DNA of 64,000 bases. Source: an uncultured Acidobacteriota bacterium. Lineage in GTDB: Bacteria; Acidobacteriota; Terriglobia; Acidiferrales; UBA7541. Positions 33,751-57,801 of the stretch are shown here, in pieces. The number at the start of each line of letters is the position of its first letter. Positions within the stretch are counted from its first letter, which is position 1. A program made the position numbers and the translations under genes. The stretch spans positions 91,265 through 155,264 of the forward strand of contig CAVRXT010000012.1 of NCBI GenBank assembly GCA_963725285.1. The letters run 5' to 3'. The notes below the pieces were generated by a model that made no database searches, was not told where the DNA came from, and worked only from the letters and a program-made list of their open reading frames with translations.

Positions 33751-33808
33751 GTCCTTGATTCGCCTTCAATCCTCCCATCCAAGGAGTTCCCCTGCTACAA
33801 TCCCGGGA

Positions 33809-35119
33809 ATGCGTGCCGTCGATCTGATTCGCAAGAAGCGCAATGCCGAAGAACTGACCGCTGAAGAGATCGCCTTCCTGATCGCGGGCGCCACTCACGA
33901 CACGATTCCCGATTACCAGATGGCCGCGTGGTTGATGGCGGTCCTATGGCGTGGCATGACCCGCGCCGAACTCGCCGCGCTCACCGAATCGATGTTGCAA
34001 TCTGGCGAGCGGCTGGATTTTTCGCACCTGCCCGCAGCCAAGGTCGACAAACATTCAACCGGCGGGGTGGGCGACAAGACTTCGCTGGTGATTGCGCCCA
34101 TCGTCGCCGCTGCGGGGCTGTATGTCCCGATGATCAGCGGCCGCGGCTTGGGCCACACCGGCGGCACCCTGGACAAACTTGAATCCATCCCCGGGTTCAA
34201 CGTGAACCTTTCGCTGGCGGATTTCGAGCGCGTTTTGCAGGAATGCCGGTGCGGCTTGATCGGGCAGACGCCGCAGATCGCGCCGGCCGACAAAAAGCTG
34301 TACGCTCTGCGCGACGTCACCGCAACGGTGGAGAGCCCCTACCTGATTTGCGCGTCGATCATGAGCAAGAAAATGGCGGAAGGAATTGATGCGTTGGTGC
34401 TGGACGTAAAAACCGGCGATGGCGCGTTCATGAAAGAACAAAAAGACGCGGTGTATCTCGCGGAGCTGATGGTTGAGACCGGCACGCGCATGGGCAAGAA
34501 AGTGGTTGCGTTGATTACGGACATGAGCCAGCCGCTGGGACGAAAAATCGGCAACGCGTTGGAAGTGAAAGAGTGTATCGAAGTTCTCGGTGGCGGCGGC
34601 CCGCAGGACTTGATCGACCTGTGCATCGAGCTTTCCGCCTGGATGCTGCTGCTGGGCTCGCGCTCGGCCAACCTGGCCGCAGGCCGCACCTTGGCCAGGG
34701 AAATGATTTCCTCCGGCCGCGCTCGTGATACATTTCGTCACATCGTGCGGCTGCAAGGCGGCGATGGCGGGGTGATCGACGACGTGGGACACTTGCCGCG
34801 GGCCGCTCATACCCGCCAGATCCACACGCCACGCGATGGGTTCGTTTCCGCGATTCGCTGCGAAAATGTGGGCGTGGCGGGAATGGTCCTGGGCGGCGGG
34901 CGGGAAAAGAAGGAAGACCGAGTGGATCCGGCGGTGGGGATCGTGCTCGAGAAGAAGGTAGGAGACGCGGTGCGCGCCGGTGAAGCGCTGTGCACCGTCC
35001 ACTACAATTCGGATTTGCGTCTGGAAGAAGCTTGCGAACTGCTGGAAGAAAGCTTTCGCATCGCTCCCCAAGCGCCGCCGCCGGCGCCGCTGGTGCTTCG
35101 GGTGATCGGTGCGGAGTGA
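33809..35119 (+). CDS. deoA: Thymidine / pyrimidine-nucleoside phosphorylase
   Basis: Contains HSTGGVGDKTSL and SGRGLGHTGGTLDKLE. Confidence 0.85.
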   Translation: MRAVDLIRKKRNAEELTAEEIAFLIAGATHDTIPDYQMAAWLMAVLWRGMTRAELAALTESMLQSGERLDFSHLPAAKVDKHSTGGVGDKTSLVIAPIVAAAGLYVPMISGRGLGHTGGTLDKLESIPGFNVNLSLADFERVLQECRCGLIGQTPQIAPADKKLYALRDVTATVESPYLICASIMSKKMAEGIDALVLDVKTGDGAFMKEQKDAVYLAELMVETGTRMGKKVVALITDMSQPLGRKIGNALEVKECIEVLGGGGPQDLIDLCIELSAWMLLLGSRSANLAAGRTLAREMISSGRARDTFRHIVRLQGGDGGVIDDVGHLPRAAHTRQIHTPRDGFVSAIRCENVGVAGMVLGGGREKKEDRVDPAVGIVLEKKVGDAVRAGEALCTVHYNSDLRLEEACELLEESFRIAPQAPPPAPLVLRVIGAE

Positions 35120-35206
35120 ACTTCGGCCCCGGAAAAATCTTCTCGCTCCAATTTAGGTTGCAAGAGCTGCCAAGCGCATTTGCCGGAAAAAGGGAGGCCT
35201 TTCACC

Positions 35207-36439
35207 GTGCATCGATTCGTCGGGTTGATTGGCATGGCAACGATGATGGGGTTGGCCTTCATTTTCTCGACCAATCGGCGCGCCATTCGCCCTCGAACGG
35301 TTGCCTGGGGTGTGGGTCTGCAGGTGGGGTTCGCCTTCCTGGTGATGCGATGGGAATACGGCCGGCTGCTTTTTCAGAAGGCGGGCGCCGGGGTGAATTG
35401 GCTGCTGGACTTTGCCTTCTACGGATCGGAATTTGTCTTCGGCCCGCTGGGAAAAAAAGTCTCGCCGATGGGTTTCTTCGTCGCCTTCCAGGTACTTCCG
35501 ACCATCATCTTTATCGCTGCACTTTTCGCGCTGCTCTATCACTGGGGCGTGATGCAATTCATCATCAAGCAGGCCGCGCGCATCATGACCTACACCATGG
35601 GCACCAGCGGGGCCGAATCGCTCAACGTGGCCGCTAGCATTTTCATGGGCCAGACCGAGGCGCCTCTTACCATTCGCCCATTCTTGGACAACGTCACCCG
35701 CTCCGAACTGATGACCATCATGACCAGCGGCATGGCCCACGTTTCCGGCGGAATCATGGCTGCATACATTCTCTACGGAATCGAAGCGAAACATTTGCTG
35801 GCAGCGGTGATCATGACCGCGCCCGGCACCATCCTGCTTTCGAAGATGCTGGTGCCCGAAACCGAAACGCCACTCACCAGCGGCAAGGTGGTGATGGCGC
35901 ACACCGAGCGGGACGCCAACTCGTTGGGCGCGATTTCCCGCGGCACCTCCGACGGACTAAATCTGGCGATCAACGTAGGCGCCATGCTGATCTCATTTAT
36001 CGCGCTGATCTATCTGGTGGACGGCATCTTCGGCGCCGCGCACACCTGGCTGGGCTATCACCACATTTGGTTTCCCAATAGCCTGGAACAGATCCTGGGT
36101 TGGTTATTCGCGCCGGTGGCCTGGCTGATCGGGATTCCATGGCACGATTGCCTGCAGATCGGCAACTTGCTGGGATTGCGCATGGTCACCAATGAATTGA
36201 TCGCCTTCCAGCGGCTGGGTCCGATGAAAGAAGCGCTCGACCCGCGTTCGTTTACCATCGCCACTTTCGCGTTGTGCGGTTTTGCGAACTTGAGTTCGAT
36301 CGGCATTCAGATTGGGGGCATCGGCGCGCTGGCGCCCAGCCGCAAAGCCGATCTGGCCCGGCTAGGTATTCGCGCGATGTTGTGCGGCACCATGGCCAAT
36401 CTGATGTCCGCGTCGATTGTGGGCGTGTTTCTGCGATGA
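35207..36439 (+). CDS. nupC: NupC-family concentrative nucleoside transporter
   Basis: CNT-family TM pattern. GTG 35207 lies after an AAAGGGAGG RBS. Confidence 0.85.
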   Translation: MHRFVGLIGMATMMGLAFIFSTNRRAIRPRTVAWGVGLQVGFAFLVMRWEYGRLLFQKAGAGVNWLLDFAFYGSEFVFGPLGKKVSPMGFFVAFQVLPTIIFIAALFALLYHWGVMQFIIKQAARIMTYTMGTSGAESLNVAASIFMGQTEAPLTIRPFLDNVTRSELMTIMTSGMAHVSGGIMAAYILYGIEAKHLLAAVIMTAPGTILLSKMLVPETETPLTSGKVVMAHTERDANSLGAISRGTSDGLNLAINVGAMLISFIALIYLVDGIFGAAHTWLGYHHIWFPNSLEQILGWLFAPVAWLIGIPWHDCLQIGNLLGLRMVTNELIAFQRLGPMKEALDPRSFTIATFALCGFANLSSIGIQIGGIGALAPSRKADLARLGIRAMLCGTMANLMSASIVGVFLR

Positions 36440-37323
36440 GCGCGCGGGGCAAGAATTCGCCGGGCGGCGCCGGGACCGGCGCCTTCGCCCAAGCCGAACG
36501 CGCCGCTAAATTCATTCTGGCGAAAAGCGAGCTGCGCCCGCGCGTCGCCATCGTTTTGGGCTCCGGCTTGGGCGCGTTTGCCGATGGACTGGCCAAACCC
36601 ACGGTTATCCCCTACCCGAAGATTCCACATTTTCCGCGCTCCACGGCGATTGGTCACGCCGGGCAACTGGTGATCGGGCTGGCCGGGAACGTTCCGGTCG
36701 CCGCAATGCAGGGGCGTGTGCATTTCTACGAGGGCTATTCGCTGTCGCAAGTGGTTTTCCCCATGCGCGTCCTAGGACGGATGGGAATTCGCTCCGCGAT
36801 TCTCACCAACGCCGCGGGCGGCATCAATACCAAGTACTCGCAGGGCGCGCTGGTGGCGATTCGCGATCACATCAATTTGCAGGGATCAAATCCGCTGATC
36901 GGGGTGAACGACGATCGCTTCGGTCCGCGTTTCTCCGATATGACCCATGCCTATCGAGAGTCCTATCGGGAAATTGCCATCGAAGAAGCCCGGCGCCTCG
37001 GTTTTGAACTACCGGAAGGCGTCTATGCCGCGCTCACCGGGCCGAGTTTTGAGACCCCCGCGGAAATCCGCTATTTGCGCACCATCGGCGCCGATCTGGT
37101 GGGCATGTCCACTGCGCCGGAAGTAATCGTCGCGCGGCACATGGGAATTCGGGTGTTGGGAATATCCTGCGTAACCAATATGGCTGCGGGGATCCTAGAT
37201 CAAGAGCTCAATCACCAGGAAGTTTTGGAAACCGGCGAGCGCGTGAAGGGGCAATTCATCTCCTTGTTGGAAGCGGTGCTGCCCAAAATTGCGGAAGACG
37301 CCGCCAAGCGGGAAAGGGAGTAG
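36436..37323 (+). CDS. punA: Purine nucleoside phosphorylase (trimeric PNP-I / PunA type)
   Basis: Close match to PunA: VAIVLGSGLG, HAGQLV, NAAGG and TGPSFETPAE. ATGA overlap with nupC. Confidence 0.85.
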   Translation: MSARGKNSPGGAGTGAFAQAERAAKFILAKSELRPRVAIVLGSGLGAFADGLAKPTVIPYPKIPHFPRSTAIGHAGQLVIGLAGNVPVAAMQGRVHFYEGYSLSQVVFPMRVLGRMGIRSAILTNAAGGINTKYSQGALVAIRDHINLQGSNPLIGVNDDRFGPRFSDMTHAYRESYREIAIEEARRLGFELPEGVYAALTGPSFETPAEIRYLRTIGADLVGMSTAPEVIVARHMGIRVLGISCVTNMAAGILDQELNHQEVLETGERVKGQFISLLEAVLPKIAEDAAKRERE

Positions 37324-37334
37324 GTTCTGCGGCC

Positions 37335-37727
37335 ATGAGCGAAGAGTCTACATGGATTGAAGCCGCGAAAGCGGCACGAGAGTTTGCCCACGCTCCGTTT
37401 TCGAATTTCAAAGTGGGCGCGGCGCTGCATACGCGGTCCGGCAAGATTTTCACCGGCTGCAACGTGGAAAACGCCAGCTACGGACTCACCCTTTGCGCCG
37501 AGCGCACCGCCATCGTCAAGGCCGTCTCCGAAGGCGAAAAGGAATTCGACGCGATTGTGGTGGTGACCGACACCGATAGACTGACGCCGCCTTGCGGAGC
37601 CTGCCGCCAATTCATCTGGGAGTTTTGCGGAGACATTGCGGTGATCATGGCCAATTTGAAAGGGGAAGTGAGGCACGATCGCAGCGGCGCGCTCTTGCCC
37701 TATGCTTTCGATTCGTCATTTCTTTAG
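37335..37727 (+). CDS. cdd: Cytidine deaminase
   Basis: Zinc-binding motifs CAER and PCGACRQ. 130 aa. Confidence 0.85.
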   Translation: MSEESTWIEAAKAAREFAHAPFSNFKVGAALHTRSGKIFTGCNVENASYGLTLCAERTAIVKAVSEGEKEFDAIVVVTDTDRLTPPCGACRQFIWEFCGDIAVIMANLKGEVRHDRSGALLPYAFDSSFL

Positions 37728-37806
37728 GAGGTTGGGAGCATCGGCGATATCCATTTCGTCCGCGACGATGTGAGCCCGCAGATATTCTGAACACCGGAGG
37801 AAACAC

Positions 37807-39222
37807 TTGGTGAAGCGCCTCATCCCAGTTTTCGCGCTGCTGTTTCTTGGCACGGCTTTGCCATCGTCCGCTCAAGCGCATCCCGCCACGGACAACGTCG
37901 ATCTAATCGTCTCCGGCGGCACGGTAGTGACCATGGATGCCGCCAGGCGCGTGATCGAAGACGGTGCGGTGGCGGTGAAAGGCGACACCATCGTTGGCGC
38001 CGGTTCGCGCGCGGAAATCGAAGCCCGCTACCACGCCGCAAAGACCATCGACGCGCGCGGAACCATCGTGATGCCCGGGCTGATCGACGCCCACGCCCAC
38101 GCCGCGATGAGCCTGTTTCGAGGCCTGGCGGACGATCTCTCCCTTGACGATTGGCTGCGCAAATATATTTTCCCCGCGGAAGCCAAAAACGTTACCGAGG
38201 ACTTCGTCGTCTGGGGCACTCGCCTCAATATGCTCGAAATGCTGCAAGGCGGGATCACCACGTATGCCGACATGTACTACTTCGAGGATGCGGTAGCGCG
38301 AGTAACCAAGGAAGCCGGTATGCGCGGCGTGCTGGGCGAGACGATCATCGATTTTCCCGCTCCGGACAACAAGACTCGCGAGCAAGCGTTCCGCTATACC
38401 CAGGATTTTCTCGACCGCTGGAAAAACGATCCGCTGATCGTGCCGGCGGTCGCTCCCCACTCGATTTACACCTGTTCGGAGAAAACACTCCAGGATTCCG
38501 CGGCGCTGGCCCGCCGCAATGGCGCCCCGATTCTTATCCACATCGCTGAAGCTCCATTTGAACTGGAACAGAGCCGCGCCAAACACGGACTCACTCCGGT
38601 CGCCTATCTCGGAAGCATCGGCCTGCTCGGCCCGGACGTGGTGGGCGCGCACTGTATTTGGGTGAACAGTGCCGACATCGCCACCCTCGCCCACTACGGT
38701 GTGGGATGCTCGCACAACCCTTCCAGCAACATGAAAACCGCCGCGGGAGTTTCGCCGGTCATGGACATGCTCGCCTTAGGGGTGCACGTAGGCTTGGCCA
38801 CCGACGGAGCGGCCAGCAACAACAATCAGGATATGTTCGAAGAAATGGACCTGGCGGCGAAAATGCAGAAGCTCGCGCACATGGATCCGCGGGTGTTGCC
38901 GGCAAACCAAGTGGTGGAAATGGCCACCATCGAGGGAGCGCGGGCGATCCACATGGAAAAGAAAATCGGATCGCTCGAACCGGGCAAGCAAGCCGATCTG
39001 ATCGTGGTCGAAACCGAGAATGGGCACTCCACCCCGATGTACAACGCATACTCGGCGATCGTCTACGCGCTAAAAGCCTCCGACGTACGCACCGTGCTCA
39101 TTGCCGGGAAGCCGGTAATGGAAGACCGCAAAATGCTCACCCTCGATCCGGCCACCATCCTCGCTAAGGCGCGCGAGTATGCACCCAAGATCGCCGCATC
39201 GGTCAAACCTCCGGCGCCGTGA
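37807..39222 (+). CDS. Secreted amidohydrolase of the chlorohydrolase / MtaD / guanine-deaminase-like family
   Basis: Signal peptide. Metal-binding HAHA near the N-terminus and an HxH...D pattern typical of the family. Confidence 0.7.
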   Translation: MVKRLIPVFALLFLGTALPSSAQAHPATDNVDLIVSGGTVVTMDAARRVIEDGAVAVKGDTIVGAGSRAEIEARYHAAKTIDARGTIVMPGLIDAHAHAAMSLFRGLADDLSLDDWLRKYIFPAEAKNVTEDFVVWGTRLNMLEMLQGGITTYADMYYFEDAVARVTKEAGMRGVLGETIIDFPAPDNKTREQAFRYTQDFLDRWKNDPLIVPAVAPHSIYTCSEKTLQDSAALARRNGAPILIHIAEAPFELEQSRAKHGLTPVAYLGSIGLLGPDVVGAHCIWVNSADIATLAHYGVGCSHNPSSNMKTAAGVSPVMDMLALGVHVGLATDGAASNNNQDMFEEMDLAAKMQKLAHMDPRVLPANQVVEMATIEGARAIHMEKKIGSLEPGKQADLIVVETENGHSTPMYNAYSAIVYALKASDVRTVLIAGKPVMEDRKMLTLDPATILAKAREYAPKIAASVKPPAP

Positions 39223-51700: not shown

Positions 51701-52608
51701 ACGAACAAAAATAGTTTATTTTTCCAGATTGGCCCGCCAATGCTGCCGCCGTAGTCGTTCAAGTGAAACGAAGATATCGGCGCGCCGAGTGCGTTGTTGG
51801 TGAAGCTATTCGCATTAAACACGCTGTTCTGCGCTTCCCAGAATGCCGACCCGTGGAATTGGTTGGTCCCGCGCTTGGTGACGAATTGTAATTGCACCGA
51901 CCCTTCCGCTCCGGCATCGGCGGTCAGGCTGTCGGTGGAAACGGTGACCTCGTCAAAGGCTCCCAACCGCAACGGGGCCGCGGTGTAAAACCCAGTGGTG
52001 GAAGTACGGTATCGCTGGAAATTGTCGTTCACTCCGTCCACCGTGATATTGATCGCCGCGTTGGGCAACGCGTTGTAGGTAGTGAACCGTTCGTCGCCGC
52101 CGCTTTCCGCGCCGGGCACCAACTGCGCGAAAGGCAGCACGTCGCGTCCTCCCAGCGGCAAATTTTGTATGTCGTCGGGACTAATCGTCGAGGAAAGCGT
52201 GTTGCTGGTGGTCTCTAGAACTTCGCTCCCGGTGGAAACACGCACCGTCTCGGTGGAGGCGCCGACCTCGAGCTGCACTTTGAGGTCGGTGGTCTTTGCG
52301 GCGCCTACGATCAGGTCGTCGTACACCGCCTCGCGGAATCCCTTCACCGAGACCTTCAACTGATAGGTGCCAGGCTGCACCGCGGGGAAAACGTACTCCC
52401 CGGATTCGTTGGCGAACACCGTTTCGGTAAAACCAGTGGAGGCTTGGGAGATGGTCAGGGTCGCGCCAGGAATCGCCGCTCCGGACGGATCGGCGACCGA
52501 GCCGGAAATTTGCCCGGTGGTGCGCACTTGAGCGGACAGGCGACCGGCGCCAGGGAAGAGCAAAAGGAGCAGACAAAAGATGATTGCGAACGATGGTCGT
52601 TTCGACAT
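48745..52608 (-). CDS. TonB-dependent outer-membrane receptor with an N-terminal carboxypeptidase-regulatory-like domain
   Basis: 1288 aa. Signal peptide, CarboxypepD_reg-type beta-sandwich region (VKGFREAVYDDLIVGAAKTTDLKVQLEVGA) and a C-terminal Phe. GGAGGG RBS before ATG 52608. Confidence 0.9.
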   Translation of the reverse strand: MSKRPSFAIIFCLLLLLFPGAGRLSAQVRTTGQISGSVADPSGAAIPGATLTISQASTGFTETVFANESGEYVFPAVQPGTYQLKVSVKGFREAVYDDLIVGAAKTTDLKVQLEVGASTETVRVSTGSEVLETTSNTLSSTISPDDIQNLPLGGRDVLPFAQLVPGAESGGDERFTTYNALPNAAINITVDGVNDNFQRYRTSTTGFYTAAPLRLGAFDEVTVSTDSLTADAGAEGSVQLQFVTKRGTNQFHGSAFWEAQNSVFNANSFTNNALGAPISSFHLNDYGGSIGGPIWKNKLFLFVNFEEEDNPYSIYTSNQIPTTAAQAGTFTYTGVSGAQHTVNLLGVAQANGFPSTPDPIMAGIFSNLNTYSTGQTLSPLSGLAYMNQLNFFQKESNTNRYPTARLDYQISSKIAFHASWDLYWRHIANVEPYPGDKHENNGFNSTYYTGMLGLDWNVAPHLLNQFNFGVLSTVEEFNPGNNFNEYASQGNVQIGAPSLANGQGLIFNPVIPGFIFPLPRNNPLWNIYDNLTWTRGNHNFTFGGDLRISTMRELESDSPPTDNVGLNNLDPALSMFNTTNFPDINTASDLLNAEALYATIVGRLNYVSGANYVDGATRQYQVAGSLNYREKQTVGGVYFQDAWRVTPHFALNFGFRWQFSGAIHNTDGFATNPTYGDLLGPSTAEFQPGQLGGNLSPDVALRPAPYTADNKQPSPNFGFAWNPNWTDGIRGKLAGGSNLVIRGGARVSHYDEGWTTFEQATIFGNPGAQQTVYLNPGFAAGQFAPGSLSVSSPITANAFPATFSPPFPESLFTFSNQMFSTVDPKIRSPYVEGWNFGFQRKLPGNTVLEVNYVGNHSVHMWQNFDLNEINIFENGFLKEFQNAQTNLAINGGSTFADNTGAPGLIPTPIFEAAFGGTGSASPSASLLSSSFSNSQFIPLLQQGQAGALANALASSASYLCNMVGGTKFTPCTGYGAGNYPMNFFQVNPYAAGSAALLLSDPGSESYSGLQVQAKHPVGHGLMLMANYTYSHAFTSRYIGDYYTADQAVENYTTLRNPGLNRVPSPYDLRNVFRTYATYDLPFGAGRQFKNSHDAVNRLIGGWTLGTIVTAQSGRNFKLLGGFNTFNDFANPLGAPDEADSGVVLNGITRKELQSNVGVYNGPNSSEPVTFLNPKLFANGAQPLLPETTPGQLGSFIFLRGPMFVNTDMSIIKSFQIYERLKVNIYAEFINLFNHPNFAVTDNSSGGSNNPAQYVNVQNPAAFGAAIANPNNGADGARSIQFRLQFAF

Positions 52609-52997
52609 GGCGCCCTCCGAATGAATTAACGGCCCCTGAGGTCTTGCTTCACGACTGCAACATGGCCGAATCGACTTGGAAGTGATTTTCGCTGAACAGC
52701 ACCCTGAAATTTTGGATACGATATACAACATAAAATATCCTGTCAAGAACTCTTTCTTTCTCCACCGTCTCTCATTCTTCAGAGCTTAGCCCAGCCCCGA
52801 CTCTCTCGGCCTCGCGTTCACGAGTTGCTTCGTGTTACCCGGCGTGCTAGTCTGCGCCAGACTCGGATTCAATTGAGTGGCGGGCACACCTGCCTGCGTT
52901 TCTCCGCATGGGGAAGCGAGATGGCGGCTCACTCCGGGCGGATGGCGCGAAAACTTGCCGCGTGCTCTGCGCGGACGCAAGCCAGGAAGAGGAAGTA

Positions 52998-53303
52998 ATG
53001 TCTGAGGAAGCTCTAGGAATGATCGAGACCAAGGGGTTGATTGGCTCGATCGAAGCTGCCGACGCCATGGTCAAGTCGGCGAACGTCACCTTGGTCGGCA
53101 AGGAATACATCGGCTCCGGTTACGTCACCGTCACCGTGCGCGGAGATGTGGGTGCGGTGAAAGCGGCCACTGATGCGGGCGCGGCAGCAGCGCGCCGCGT
53201 GGGCGAGCTCGTCTCCGTACACGTGATCCCGCGTCCGCACGAGAACATCGAGGCGATTCTTCCGGGCGGCGCTGGACGAGAGTCGTCGGCTGGGAAACGC
53301 TGA
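52998..53303 (+). CDS. Bacterial microcompartment shell protein, BMC-H (PduA/PduJ/EutM-like)
   Basis: [30 protein letters not shown]...[37 protein letters not shown] is near-identical in pattern to the PduA family (Pfam PF00936). Confidence 0.85.
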
Positions 53304-53390
53304 AGTTAGGCTGATTCGCCACGGACGGCGCCGCAGCCAGTCGCACCGGCGCTGACGCAGCCATTCCAAAACTGGTCCTTACCGGCGGGG

Positions 53391-55376
53391 TTGAACGGAT
53401 TGAGCCTTCGTGACCGCGATTTAATTTCCATCCAAGACGCCCGCGAGAGTGTCGAGCGGGCGGCGCAAGCCCAGAAAAAATTTGCGTCGTTCCCCCAAGC
53501 GCAGATCGATGCGGTAGTAGACGCGTGCGCCGAAGCGGCCGCCGGCGCCGCGGAATCGCTGGCGCGTCTGGCCGTGGAAGAAACCGGCTACGGCAACGTT
53601 CCCGACAAAATTCTGAAGAACCGTCTCGCCGCGGTCGAAGTTCATCGCGCCATTCGCGGCATGAAGACCGTCGGAATCGTGCGCGAAGATGCCCAACACA
53701 AAATTCTGGAAGTGGCCGAGCCGGTGGGCGTGGTTGCCGCGATCATTCCCTCCACCAATCCCACTTCCACCGCAATTTACAAAACTCTGATCGCGCTGAA
53801 ATCCCGCAACGCCATCGTGCTCAGCCCGCATCCCACCGCCGCGCGCTGCATTTGCGAAGCCGCCGCGGTGCTCGAACGCGCCGCGCGAAAAGCAGGAGCG
53901 CCCGACGGCATTATCGTTTGCCTGCAAAATCCCACGCTGCCGGGAACCCAGGAATTGATGCGCCAACGCAGCGTCGGCGTGATCCTGGCCACTGGCGGAA
54001 CCGGATTGGTTCGCGCCGCTTACAGTTCCGGCAAGCCTGCTTACGGCGTAGGCCCCGGTAACGTCCCGGCGTTTATCGAGCGCACCGCGGACGTGCCGAA
54101 AGCCATCGCCGATATTTTTGCGGGCAAAACGTTTGACTACGGCACCATCTGTTCATCCGAGCAAGCCGTCGTGGTCGAAGATGCGGTCAAGGATTTGGCG
54201 ATCGCCGAATGCACTCGCCAGGGCGCGCACTGGCTCTCCGCCGACGAAATTCGCCGCCTCGGAGCCGTGGTAATCCTTCCCGGCACTTCCGCGCCCAATA
54301 CCAAAATCGTGGGCCGCGCCGCGACAGTGGTTGCCGAAATTGCCGGAATCCAAGTGCCCGCTTCCACGCGGGTGCTCATCGCGCGGCTCGAAGCCGTTGG
54401 CCGCGAGGTTCCGCTCTCGGCCGAAAAGCTCTCGCCCATTCTGGCTTTTTATACGGTTCCGGATCTGGCCGCCGGCATCGAGCGTTGCCGGCAACTCTTG
54501 CAGTTCGGCGGCTTGGGCCACACCGCTTCGATTCATTCGCAGAATGACGCGGCCATCCGCGAATACGGCCAGGCCGTGCCGGCGTTCCGAATTTGCGTCA
54601 ACACCGCGTCGGTGCACGGCTCAATCGGCTACTCGACCAATCTCTCTCCCGCGATGACTCTTGGCTGCGGCGCGCCGGGCGGCAACATCACCTCCGACAA
54701 TATTGGTCCGCAACACCTGATGAATATCAAGCGTATCGCCTGGGAGTCTCGCGGCATCGAACACCGCACCATTCCCGCGGATCAGCGCATGTCCGCCACG
54801 GCGACGCCTTCCCAAACCGCTGCGGTGGCAACGGCTGCCGCCGCGCGCGCCGATGCAAACCCTACCGTCATTCCCGATCGTCGTTTAATCGCCAACATGG
54901 TCGAGAGAGTTCTGAGCGCTCGGGGAATCCCGCGGGGCGCAGCGATGGCCACAGCCGCCGCCGCTTCGTCGGGAACGCCCAGGCCGAGCGCCGCAGACGT
55001 AGCTACTTCCGCGGTGAGCGCCATTTTTGACCGGCGATCGCCAGGCCACAGCGATCCGTCGGCTTCAGTCTCCGCTGCGGCCACCGCGGCCAGCTCGGCG
55101 GAGCACCGTGGCGCGGGAAAATCCTCTGCCGAGGCCGGACCTGCATCCACATCCGCGGGAACGCGCCCAACCGCACCCGCGGCGACCCCGGCGCTCAAGA
55201 TACCCGATTTTGTCAGCGAAAATGACGTCCGCATGGCCATCACCCGTAGCGAAAAAATTTTTATTAGCACCCAAACCATCGTCACGCCTTCCGCCCGCGA
55301 CCTGGCATCCACCCACGAAGTATTCGTTGAGACCGCCAGCGCCCCCAGCGCCCGCCCTCGATCGCTTCGAGATTGA
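53391..55376 (+). CDS. CoA-acylating aldehyde dehydrogenase (PduP/EutE-type) with a ~200-aa low-complexity C-terminal extension
   Basis: Key motifs are [74 protein letters not shown] and [11 protein letters not shown] (catalytic Cys). The ORF continues in-frame for ~200 Ala/Ser/Thr-rich residues. Confidence 0.85.
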
Positions 55377-55451
55377 GGGATTCACGGGTGGCTTCGATTC
55401 TCAATCCCGCTTGCCGCCTGGCGCATCTAACCCCGGGAAGGGAATCGCACC

Positions 55452-57801
55452 ATGCGCAACGCTGAAGCGGCTCGCTACGCTCGCTGGGCCGCCACCGTCT
55501 CCATCTTGATCGTCACCCTGACTGCCGGCGTTTACATCCGCCGCGCGTGGCGCGCTTCCCATACCGGCGGCGAGACCCCTGAACCTATCCCCGATTCCGT
55601 GCAGCAACGTTCCGCAGTGTTTTCGCATTCCAAAGTGGAGTCCAACAGAACCATCTACACGATTCGCGCTTCGCAAGCCACCGAGTTCAAGGAACACAGC
55701 CTGCTGCAAGACGTCTGGATCACCATCTATGGCCAAGAGGGCGCGCGCAACGACAACGTGCACACCCGGGAATGCAGCTACGAACCCAACAGCGGCAATA
55801 TCCGCTGCCAGGGCGTGGTGCAGATCGATTTGGAAAGCGCGGATCAGGCCAAGGAACCTGGGCACCCTCACATCATGCACGTGAAGACCCAGGATTTCTC
55901 GTTCGATGAGAAAACCGGTGACGCGAGTTCCGATCAGCCGGTCGAAATTCAGTTTCCTGGCGGCAGTGGACACGGCCGGGGGCTCACCTACAACGCCAAT
56001 CGCACCGACCTCCGCCTTGAGCACGACGTCGAGTTCCAAATGGGTTCACCAACCGACCCTAAGGCTCCGGTCACCACCTTTGCCGGCAGCGCGCTGGATT
56101 TTCAGCGCAGTATTTCCACCGCTCAACTGTTCGGGCCAGTCCGCGTCAACCAGTCCGGACGCGTGCTCACATCGGGCCTGCTCACTTTGCTTCTCGACAG
56201 CGAGATGCACGCCCGGCACGTGCGGGCCTCCAACCACCCTGCCTTGCACTCCAGCGATGTCCAGCCGACGACTACCGGCACGATCGAAGTTACCTCCGAT
56301 GAAATGGACGCCGACCTGGACCCCGCGGGCTGGGCGCAGCAAGCCCAATTTTCCGGAAACGTGCGCGCCCACCGCCGCAACGGCAAGGAAAATGCCAATT
56401 TCACCGCGCAGCAAGCGGTTCTGCTGATGGAGCCGCGCGATAATTTGCTGCGCTCGGTGACCGCCAACGGCGGCGTGCACGTCGATATGCACAGCGATAC
56501 GCCCAGCGGGCCGCAATCGCGCACCCTGGACACCGCCGCGCTGCGCCTCGATTTTCATTCCACGCCGGGCCCCGATCCCAGTAGCCAAATCTCTGCTGCC
56601 GAAACGCTGGCCCCCGGCGCCATCGGTCTGAATTCCCCAGGCGACACCACCCAGGTGTACGCCACGAAATTCAATGCGCACTTCGACGCGGCCGGACGAT
56701 TCGATTGGCTCGAGGGGCATTCCGAAACGGAGATCAACCGCCAGATAAAATCAGACCCGCCGCAAAAGATTACCGCGCGGGACCTGGCGGTGACCTTCGC
56801 CAATGATGGGAGCTGGACCAACTTGAAGCTCGATCGCAACGTGCGCTTCCATCAGGCCGACCGGTCCGCGGAATGTGACCGCGCTACCATCGCCCACGCC
56901 ACCAACATTATCCATCTCGACGGTTCGCCCGCCGTGGCCGACCTGTCCGCCCGCACCACCGCCGGGGCTATCGAAATCAATCAGTCTACCAACGACATCC
57001 ACGCGGAATCTTCGGTCCTCACCACTTATCGAAATTCCACCCCGGACAAAGGTCCCGACCATCGGCGCCGGAATCGCGCACGTGTCCTCGGACACCCTGG
57101 CTGGCAACGGCGCTTCCGGACACTTGCTTTATTCCGGCCACGCCCGCTATTGGCAAGGCGATACCACGCTCAACGCCGACGTGATCGAAATTACCCGTGC
57201 GCAGAACCGCATCGACGCCCACGGCAACGTGATCGCCGCGCTCCCGCAGCTTCCCGGCCCGGGCCTTCCCGGAACTATTGCCCGCGCCAACCCGAAGCCC
57301 ACCCGGCCGGTCATCTGGGACGTTCGTGCGCCGGTCTTGCATTATTGGAACGACACCGGGAAGGGCCTGCTGGAGGGCGGTGTGAATGCCACCTCCACCC
57401 AGGGCGCACTGCATTCCGAGACTCTCGATCTGTTTCTCGCACCGGCAGCCCAGCCCGACGCCAGCGGTCAGCTGCCCAAAGCCGCTCCCACGTCAGCTCC
57501 CAGCACCGCGACGCCTAAGTCGGCCCCGGCAACTTCCCCAGGTCGCCAGCTCGAGCGCGCGGTGGCTCAGGGATCGGTGGTGGTGCAGCAAGGCGACCGC
57601 CGCGGCATGGCCGATCAAGGCGTTTACACCGCAGCCGATGGCCGCTACGTGCTCTCCGGCGGCGATCCGACGATTATCGATGCGGCCAGCGACACCACCA
57701 CCCAAGGCCATTCGTTGACCTTCTATGTAGCCAGTGATACGATTTTGATAGACGCCCAAGCGGGTTCCAAAACGCTGACGAAACACAGAGTTGAGAAATG
57801 A
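55452..57801 (+). pseudogene. LptC-like N-terminal TM region joined to OstA/LptA-like repeats (LPS transport periplasmic bridge), interrupted by an apparent +1 frameshift near 57040-57060
   Basis: Frame 0 (55452-57518) has an N-terminal TM and LptC/OstA-like repeats up to ...TTYRNSTPDKG and then Arg-rich garbage. Frame +1 (listed from 56875) becomes LptA-like from ...VPTIGAGIAHVSSDTLAG... to the stop at 57801, just before lptB. Confidence 0.55.

Follow-up and report, generated by a model that had tools for sequence, protein, structure and literature searches.

A BMC-H and type I aldehyde dehydrogenase gene pair in Acidiferrales is probably the satellite cassette of the ACI microcompartment

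The ACI type of bacterial microcompartment (BMC) has been catalogued in 125 loci, all of them from Acidobacteria (Sutter et al. 2021, Nat Commun 12:3809, Supplementary Data 2, PMC8217296). Its main locus encodes an aldolase (pfam00596) that bears its encapsulation peptide at the C-terminus, a hydroxyacid dehydrogenase (pfam00389/02826), three unknown proteins, the shell hexamer protein BMC-H and a triplet of the shell pentamer protein BMC-P. The satellite locus encodes a pfam00171 aldehyde dehydrogenase (ALDH) with an encapsulation peptide near the C-terminus, which is followed by a domain of unknown function of ∼50 amino acids (PMC8217296). Other ACI BMC-H genes are "occasionally found ... 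with an AldDh", an occasional fourth BMC-P is located with the ALDH, and the ALDH itself has phylogenetic affinity solely to MIC3 from Planctomycetes (PMC8217296). We analysed a 64,000-nucleotide stretch of contig CAVRXT010000012.1 from an uncultured bacterium of the order Acidiferrales (hereafter the window), in which a BMC-H gene is followed by the gene of a CoA-acylating ALDH. With a probability of roughly three in four, this pair is the BMC-H and ALDH cassette of an ACI microcompartment, its satellite locus, vertically inherited within Acidobacteriota.

Every feature of the ACI satellite that could be tested is found in the window. The closest homologues of both proteins carry the labels Candidatus Acidiferrales/Acidoferrales, Terriglobia or Acidobacteriota, Acidiferrales being an order of Terriglobia within Acidobacteriota. 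The ALDH belongs to PF00171 and to type I (601 bits against TIGR02518 versus 265 bits against the PduP/EutE model), carries a predicted encapsulation peptide that is close to the C-terminus but not terminal (residues 493–516), and continues into a domain of about 50 amino acids (residues 604–650). As in the catalogue, the enzyme is encoded apart from pentamers in an acidobacterial genome, with a BMC-H alongside, as is sometimes the case there. The original prediction, made from the sequence of the window, had denied that the locus is of a standard, described type; this is incorrect, since a satellite with these features was catalogued in 2021. The window differs from that description in its host, an Acidiferrales bacterium as opposed to mainly subdivisions 4 and 6, in the lack of a pentamer gene in the satellite, in its fixed place upstream of lptC and in a promoter-like motif ahead of the pair. 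A search for literature on Acidiferrales/Acidobacteriota microcompartments after 2021 returned nothing beyond the 2021 catalogue.

It is the lineage and not the locus type that is new here: Acidiferrales have not been highlighted for ACI, and the range of ACI-type cassettes is extended to Acidiferrales and Bryobacterales (class Terriglobia). Two modest additions are the EutQ-like nature of the terminal domain and the conserved promoter-like motif and lpt synteny. Acidobacteria dominate many soils, Acidiferrales are an abundant uncultured soil order, and the cassette abounds in soil data: a protein search gave over 8000 homologues of the ALDH, the closest of which are labelled Candidatus Acidiferrales. 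To our knowledge, ACI compartments have no assigned substrate.

The shell protein of 101 amino acids is a canonical BMC-H, as had been predicted for this place. It aligns as a single domain to the whole of the PF00936 profile (positions 1–75 of 75; 102 bits, E = 1.7e-29, cutoff 24.5 bits), shares 81% identity over 90 residues with a PduA of known structure (PDB entry 7MMX, 145 bits) and matches PduA, EutM and HO BMC-H structures with E values of 1e-33 to 1e-42. Its score against the NCBIfam EutM model is 128 bits, slightly below the cutoff of 133. An IGSG pore loop and a PRPH edge motif are shared with the PduA/EutM hexamers, from which the protein differs in being encoded singly, apart from other shell genes, and in its short basic C-terminal tail. 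The ATG at 52998 has the ribosome-binding stretch GGAAGAGGAAG just ahead of it. Orthologues among the matches listed in a protein search are 76–98% identical and all adjoin an ALDH gene, a neighbour that was confirmed by gene-context look-ups for P0200, P0207 and P0225. The best-scoring match (P0121) is an oddity, a 147-residue protein labelled Streptococcus iniae SF1 with 83% identity.

The ALDH open reading frame begins, after a gap of 87 nt, with the TTG at 53391 and encodes 661 amino acids. The next TTG at 53400, which gives 658 amino acids and a gap of 96 nt, is probably the true start, as indicated by the alignment of orthologues and by the gene calls on a public contig (L001/L180) that differs from the window by two mismatches and one indel over 5.3 kb.

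Two classes of BMC ALDH have been distinguished: type I, which is dominated by EUT2 and corresponds to IPR013357, has its encapsulation peptide at the C-terminus, and type II (IPR012408) has it at the N-terminus (Sutter et al. 2021, PMC8217296). Judged by profile scores and identities, the enzyme of the window belongs to the type I (EUT2/AdhE-like) BMC class and not to the PduP/EutE type. It scores 600.7 bits against the NCBIfam model TIGR02518 of acetylating acetaldehyde dehydrogenase (cutoff 620), 533 bits against that of the AdhE N-terminal half and 356 bits against SauS, and 265 bits against the PduP/EutE subfamily model NF011927, which is below the cutoff of 403. We take TIGR02518 to be equivalent to IPR013357. 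The nearest solved structures are 5J78 (508 bits) and the Listeria eut-operon enzyme 3K9D (483 bits), and the PduP structures 5JFL and 4C3S score 160–190 bits. Within the fetched loci, the core is 47–51% identical to Firmicutes EUT2-type enzymes and 28–36% identical to PduP-like enzymes.

The likeness to the type I enzymes of Listeria (lmo1179; 3K9D) and Geobacillus thermoglucosidasius (5J78) comprises a core identity of ∼50%, the motif around the catalytic cysteine and the absence of an N-terminal extension, the N-terminus being flush with that of 5J78. Unlike the ALDH of the window, these enzymes lack a long tail carrying an internal helix and a terminal domain, and EUT2 enzymes are located within a complete eut locus. 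The PduP/EutE enzymes of type II resemble it in their chemistry and in their role as metabolosome core enzyme, and differ in sequence (28–36% identity) and in the N-terminal position of their encapsulation peptide. Of the originally predicted PduP/EutE-like acylating ALDH, the CoA-acylating part (PF00171, TIGR02518) thus stands while the PduP/EutE likeness does not. Grouping with AdhE-type enzymes had been named as an observation that would speak against a microcompartment. An AdhE-like affinity is indeed found, yet the type I BMC class includes it, and it is therefore no argument against a microcompartment role.

The catalytic core extends to about residue 465 and is followed by an Ala/Ser/Pro linker, a predicted amphipathic helix at residues 493–516, a second linker and the terminal block of residues 604–650. 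In an alignment of 18 orthologues (63–92% identical) both linkers are hypervariable and cannot be aligned. The helix segment between them has the consensus xPDRxxIAxxVExVxxxRGIPRG with invariant P495, D496, R497, A501, V504, V507, G512, I513 and R515, and residues 497–510 have the highest helical hydrophobic moment within the tail. An equivalent helix, e.g. REEIAKIVDTFL or LARRIDEFLASRG, is present at the matching place in the ALDHs of other acidobacterial orders. We infer that the tail helix acts in encapsulation. The AlphaFold model of the full-length ALDH (18 sequences) has a predicted local distance difference test (pLDDT) value of 48.9 and was used solely for the secondary structure of the tail. 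A second helix is predicted in the linker at residues 534–546 (54990–55028), where AEVAAQVVAERVG is kept in a subset of the orthologues, and in the ALDHs of Bryobacterales a second segment, VASVVDRFLSIR, clearly resembles an encapsulation peptide. There may thus be two targeting helices in the tail.

The terminal block ends in HEVFV and is present in all acidobacterial satellite ALDHs compared. Modelled alone (30 sequences), AlphaFold predicts it to adopt a compact beta-alpha-beta-beta-alpha-beta fold. A profile of the domain gave 649 representative matches at E ≤ 1e-3 among 1.84 billion proteins. Among the best 150 of these, 18 were retrieved, all 18 being C-terminal fragments of ALDHs, and the others have similar lengths and match at the C-terminus; no new carrier families were seen among these best 150 representative-library matches. 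Within the fetched loci, a hidden Markov model (HMM) of the domain also matches three other kinds of protein: EutQ-like cupins, at the N-terminus and outside the PF06249 region; flavoprotein-like microcompartment proteins (PF02441/PF15953), at the C-terminus and partly inside PF15953; and a PduL, likewise at the C-terminus. Iterated searches of the fetched loci met the family only in genes of microcompartment loci. When compared using hhalign, the domain aligns with the EutQ N-termini with a probability of 94.7% (E = 6e-8) and with the C-termini of flavoprotein-like BMC proteins and a PduL with a probability of 97.4% (E = 1e-11), and twenty column-shuffled controls all remain at or below 0.7%. 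There is in addition a weak NCBIfam match to TIGR02536, an eut-operon protein. No single Pfam model covers the family, and a Foldseek search of the domain against the PDB gave no significant structural match.

Residues 1–99 of Salmonella EutQ are necessary and sufficient for targeting, with H1/H2 binding the shell at the EutL/EutM interface and H3/H4 binding the encapsulation peptides of cargo (Sci Adv 2025, PMC12487888). From the profile alignments, the terminal domain of the ALDH is a homologue of the N-terminal shell-binding module of EutQ, which to the description of ACI is a new point. With H1/H2 it shares two predicted helices and the pattern (I/V)(T/S)xxD(V/I)R...I...(I/V)(I/V)TPSAR(D/E). 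It is located at the C-terminus of an ALDH as opposed to the N-terminus of a cupin acetate kinase, and the cargo-binding H3/H4 region of EutQ has no recognised equivalent in the ALDH. Given this homology and the shell binding of EutQ, we propose the terminal domain as an anchor, our working hypothesis being that the ACI ALDH would attach to shell hexamers by analogy with EutQ. This supplies a possible function for the 'domain of unknown function' of the ACI ALDH, which is a member of a small family found also on EutQ, flavoprotein-like proteins and PduL.

BMC-H and ALDH genes are adjacent in all of the ∼60 acidobacterial loci fetched, so that their pairing is far beyond chance. A BMC-H scan of one genome per species returned ∼35 acidobacterial loci, in each of which the gene after BMC-H encodes an ALDH with the terminal domain and, at the corresponding position, a helix. 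Long Acidiferrales contigs with the cassette include ENA ERZ25039491 contig_27579 (5,425,299 bp; cassette near 1.538 Mb), ERZ25039484 contig_14896 (2,423,816 bp) and ERZ25039470 contig_41712 (1,256,179 bp), as well as GenBank JBOGMZ010000007.1 (355,197 bp). The pair occurs in Acidiferrales/Terriglobia, Bryobacterales, Sulfopaludibacter, Pyrinomonadaceae/Blastocatellia, Vicinamibacterales, gp5 and gp6. The position of lptC immediately after the ALDH gene is confined to Acidiferrales-type loci, and in those examined (ALDH 63–90% identical) the order BMC-H, ALDH, lptC/A fusion, lptB, rpoN, rapZ is invariant; in other acidobacterial orders the pair is found in unrelated gene contexts. Further upstream, nucleoside-catabolism genes, a RodZ-like gene and a GAF-GGDEF gene are shared as well, and a 10-kb upstream block with the TonB-type receptor is the variable part, peculiar to the lineage of the window. 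Given the conserved order from BMC-H to rapZ and the variability of the TonB block, the pair is a stable element and not an insertion, contrary to the 'unusual insertion point' that had been suggested for it.

In a neighbour-joining tree of the ALDH cores, all enzymes with the terminal domain fall into a single clade whose branching largely agrees with taxonomy, Acidiferrales being the sister of Bryobacterales. The outgroups nearest to this acidobacterial clade are enzymes from Planctomycetota (L057), Chloroflexota and Treponemataceae, the first of which appears in line with the published MIC3 affinity. In Pyrinomonadaceae-type satellites (L071 12281–15193; also L064, L069, L073 and L083) three conserved genes follow the ALDH gene and encode a pentamer, an ACT-domain protein and a DUF711 protein. 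The N-terminus of the ACT-domain protein resembles a duplicated encapsulation peptide (ELIYRITRVIYDRL..VEQLVTELYRAIE).

The absence of other microcompartment genes nearby, which the original prediction had noted, is confirmed within the window. Iterated HMM searches of all six-frame open reading frames of at least 45 amino acids found no PF03319 pentamer, second BMC domain, PduL or class II aldolase, and Pfam scans of those of at least 200 amino acids found no Fe-alcohol dehydrogenase, hydroxyacid dehydrogenase or DeoC. The 64 kb therefore contain neither a PF03319-like open reading frame nor a signature enzyme of a complete metabolosome main locus. Elsewhere, the best 120 matches of the ALDH protein search are all orthologous satellites and are uninformative on a main locus. 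The BMC-H scan of the genome collection returned acidobacterial satellites and Firmicutes main loci and no acidobacterial main locus, which is likewise uninformative because Pyrinomonadaceae main loci, known to exist, were equally unreturned. A protein search with the acidobacterial pentamer from L071 gave, among the matches listed, only Pyrinomonadaceae orthologues of 85–94% identity. With an alignment of triplet-clade pentamers, all 80 loci listed in a metagenome scan are at least 78% identical to the Chloroflexota query, and viral contigs gave no match.

If the pair is an ACI satellite, the 101-residue protein would form PduA-like hexamers that tile the facets of the shell, as expected from homology. 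The type I ALDH would, again from homology, convert an aldehyde made inside the compartment to acyl-CoA with the use of NAD+ and CoA. It would be retained through two elements on its long flexible tail: the internal amphipathic helix, which resembles an encapsulation peptide, and the terminal domain, with its homology to the H1/H2 shell-binding module of EutQ. If other Acidobacteria are a guide, the remaining parts of the organelle would be expected elsewhere in the genome, namely a BMC-P triplet, one further BMC-H, a class II aldolase with an encapsulation peptide, a hydroxyacid dehydrogenase and some unknown proteins.

Several observations weigh against this assignment. No main locus with BMC-P is present in the window or in the 10 kb on either side of any Acidiferrales locus examined. 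The catalogue places ACI loci "primarily" in subdivisions 4 and 6 and not in Acidiferrales (PMC8217296). For the BMC-H of the window, the comparison with ACI, whose BMC-H colour clades are H_fuchsia or H_royalpurple, extends to the presence of the standard PRPH motif, and the neighbour-joining tree has neither bootstrap support nor labelled MIC3 references. AlphaFold places the tail helix at residues 497–510 with low confidence, and, tested against shuffles matched in composition, the hydrophobic moment of the helix does not reach significance (p = 0.23). We also know of no experimental work on any ACI compartment.

An alternative is a stand-alone reduced system, in which the ACI main locus and all pentamers were lost from Acidiferrales or were never there. 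BMC-H by itself would then form sheets, tubes or open shells as a scaffold for the ALDH through the tail helix and the terminal domain, and the aldehyde would be channelled or sequestered without a closed organelle. We consider this unlikely, though it deserves to be taken seriously: no BMC-P, second BMC domain, aldolase or PduL is found in the 64 kb or in the ∼20 kb around at least 20 related loci, a pentamer gene follows the ALDH gene in five Pyrinomonadaceae-type loci and never in the Acidiferrales loci examined, and ACI was catalogued mainly in other subdivisions. The catalogue calls a locus only where BMC-H and BMC-P are both present (PMC8217296), and genomes with the pair only could therefore have been missed. 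However, the absence of a pentamer comes from local searches only, the failure of the genome scan to return a main locus is uninformative, and ACI loci are on record for Solibacter and Sulfopaludibacter, which are of the same class as Acidiferrales. The strong conservation of BMC-H (87–98%) and of both targeting elements is also what an intact organelle predicts. For these last two reasons the satellite is the better supported of the two options that had originally been offered, a satellite or a reduced system. A more specific form of the latter, in which the Acidiferrales pair is a self-sufficient, pentamer-less scaffold with a EutQ-like anchor and its own promoter ahead of lptC-lptB-rpoN, is in our judgement a little more doubtful still.

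Two further explanations appear very improbable. The ALDH could be an ordinary cytosolic acetaldehyde/acyl-CoA dehydrogenase that plays no part in a microcompartment and adjoins a relic shell gene by chance, and its best NCBIfam and PDB matches do include the non-compartment AdhE, SauS and Geobacillus 5J78, the TIGR02518 score being slightly below cutoff. The ∼190-residue tail, however, has two conserved elements that are absent from cytosolic relatives and are kept across the phylum, the terminal domain is common only to microcompartment-associated proteins, and BMC-H is invariably adjacent and under strong constraint. Alternatively, the pair could belong functionally to the envelope/sigma-54 operon lptC/A-lptB-rpoN-rapZ, e.g. 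in the detoxification of a lipopolysaccharide-linked aldehyde, in agreement with the shared strand, the gap of 75 nt, the lack of a predicted terminator between ALDH and lptC, and the order-wide synteny. Against such a role, which we give equally little credence, other acidobacterial orders carry the pair in unrelated contexts, and the spacer to lptC, between 75 and 293 nt in length, contains conserved TATACT/TCTAAC-like elements of its own. The lptCAB-rpoN genes are moreover a housekeeping block that in most bacteria is without BMC-H or ALDH genes. The ACI satellite hence remains the preferred reading of the pair.

Table 1. Location of the features discussed (window coordinates unless a fetched locus, L, is named)
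Feature	Location	Strand	Basis or description
Promoter-like motif	52825-52853	+	TTGCTT 52825-52830, 17-nt spacer, TGcTAGTCT (-10 hexamer 52848-52853)
BMC-H shell hexamer protein gene, 101 aa, PduA/EutM-like	52998-53303	+	PF00936 match and PduA identity
CoA-acylating ALDH gene with ∼190-residue C-terminal extension	53391-55376	+	PF00171, TIGR02518
ALDH catalytic core, residues 4-465	53400-54785	+	Alignment to 5J78, residues 5 to 459
Catalytic Cys254 in motif GTICSSEQ	54150-54152	+	Invariant with surrounding motif in 18 orthologues
Encapsulation-peptide-like amphipathic helix (predicted), residues 493-516	54867-54938	+	Conserved island between unalignable linkers
C-terminal folded domain (predicted) of ∼45 residues, residues 604-650	55200-55340	+	Conserved; AlphaFold pLDDT 91
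Other carriers of the terminal-domain family	L058 6437-7078; L080 6284-6949; L017 13312-14085		Iterated HMM search, fetched loci
Further carriers of the terminal-domain family	L021 4759-5445; L029 11096-11845; L013 5202-6224		Iterated HMM search

The promoter-like motif precedes the ATG of BMC-H by 145 nt. In nine distinct Acidiferrales-type lineages the upstream regions can be aligned only at CTTG(C/A)TTC-N17-TG(C/T)TAGTCTGCGC, which is 72–153 nt before the BMC-H start. The -10-like 9-mer TGYTAGTCT occurs 29 times in the 2.18 Mb of DNA fetched, and 23 of these occurrences are at the cassette site. The conservation and spacing of the motif suggest that it is the cassette's own promoter. A generic scan for sigma-70 promoters and terminators did not flag the motif, nor did it find a terminator-like hairpin between the motif and lptC, and an Rfam search of 52400–55600 gave no riboswitch or other known RNA. 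On the minus strand, a good sigma-70-like match TTGACA-17-TATCGT (52718–52746) faces the gene of the TonB-type outer-membrane protein (called start 52608), and the 390-bp region upstream of BMC-H therefore probably holds divergent promoters.

Downstream of the ALDH gene, the 75-nt spacer to lptC occupies 55377–55451. TCTAAC is present in the spacers of the window, L003, L006 and L012, and CCTATACTC in those of L006, L012 and L089; such motifs may represent a promoter or leader of lptC. In the window, the ALDH stop codon is moreover straddled by an inverted repeat of 7 bp, GATTGAG...CTCAATC.

The nucleoside-catabolism cluster at 33755–39222, 11–19 kb upstream of the cassette and syntenic with it across the order, encodes a thymidine phosphorylase, a nucleoside transporter, a purine/uridine phosphorylase and an amidohydrolase. 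An SPU-like link from deoxyribose to acetaldehyde was considered for this cluster and rejected, as there is no DeoC or RpiB and unrelated genes lie between.

At the CCC run around 57055–57057 (57050–57059), the window contains one base more than the near-identical contig L001, and the 782-residue lptC/lptA fusion is thereby split into the overlapping open reading frames 55452–57518 and 56875–57801. This is probably a homopolymer assembly error and not a pseudogene. In L091 (10960–12399), a locus from a long-read metagenome-assembled genome, the ALDH and lptC genes appear to be split into several open reading frames, probably owing to frameshift errors.

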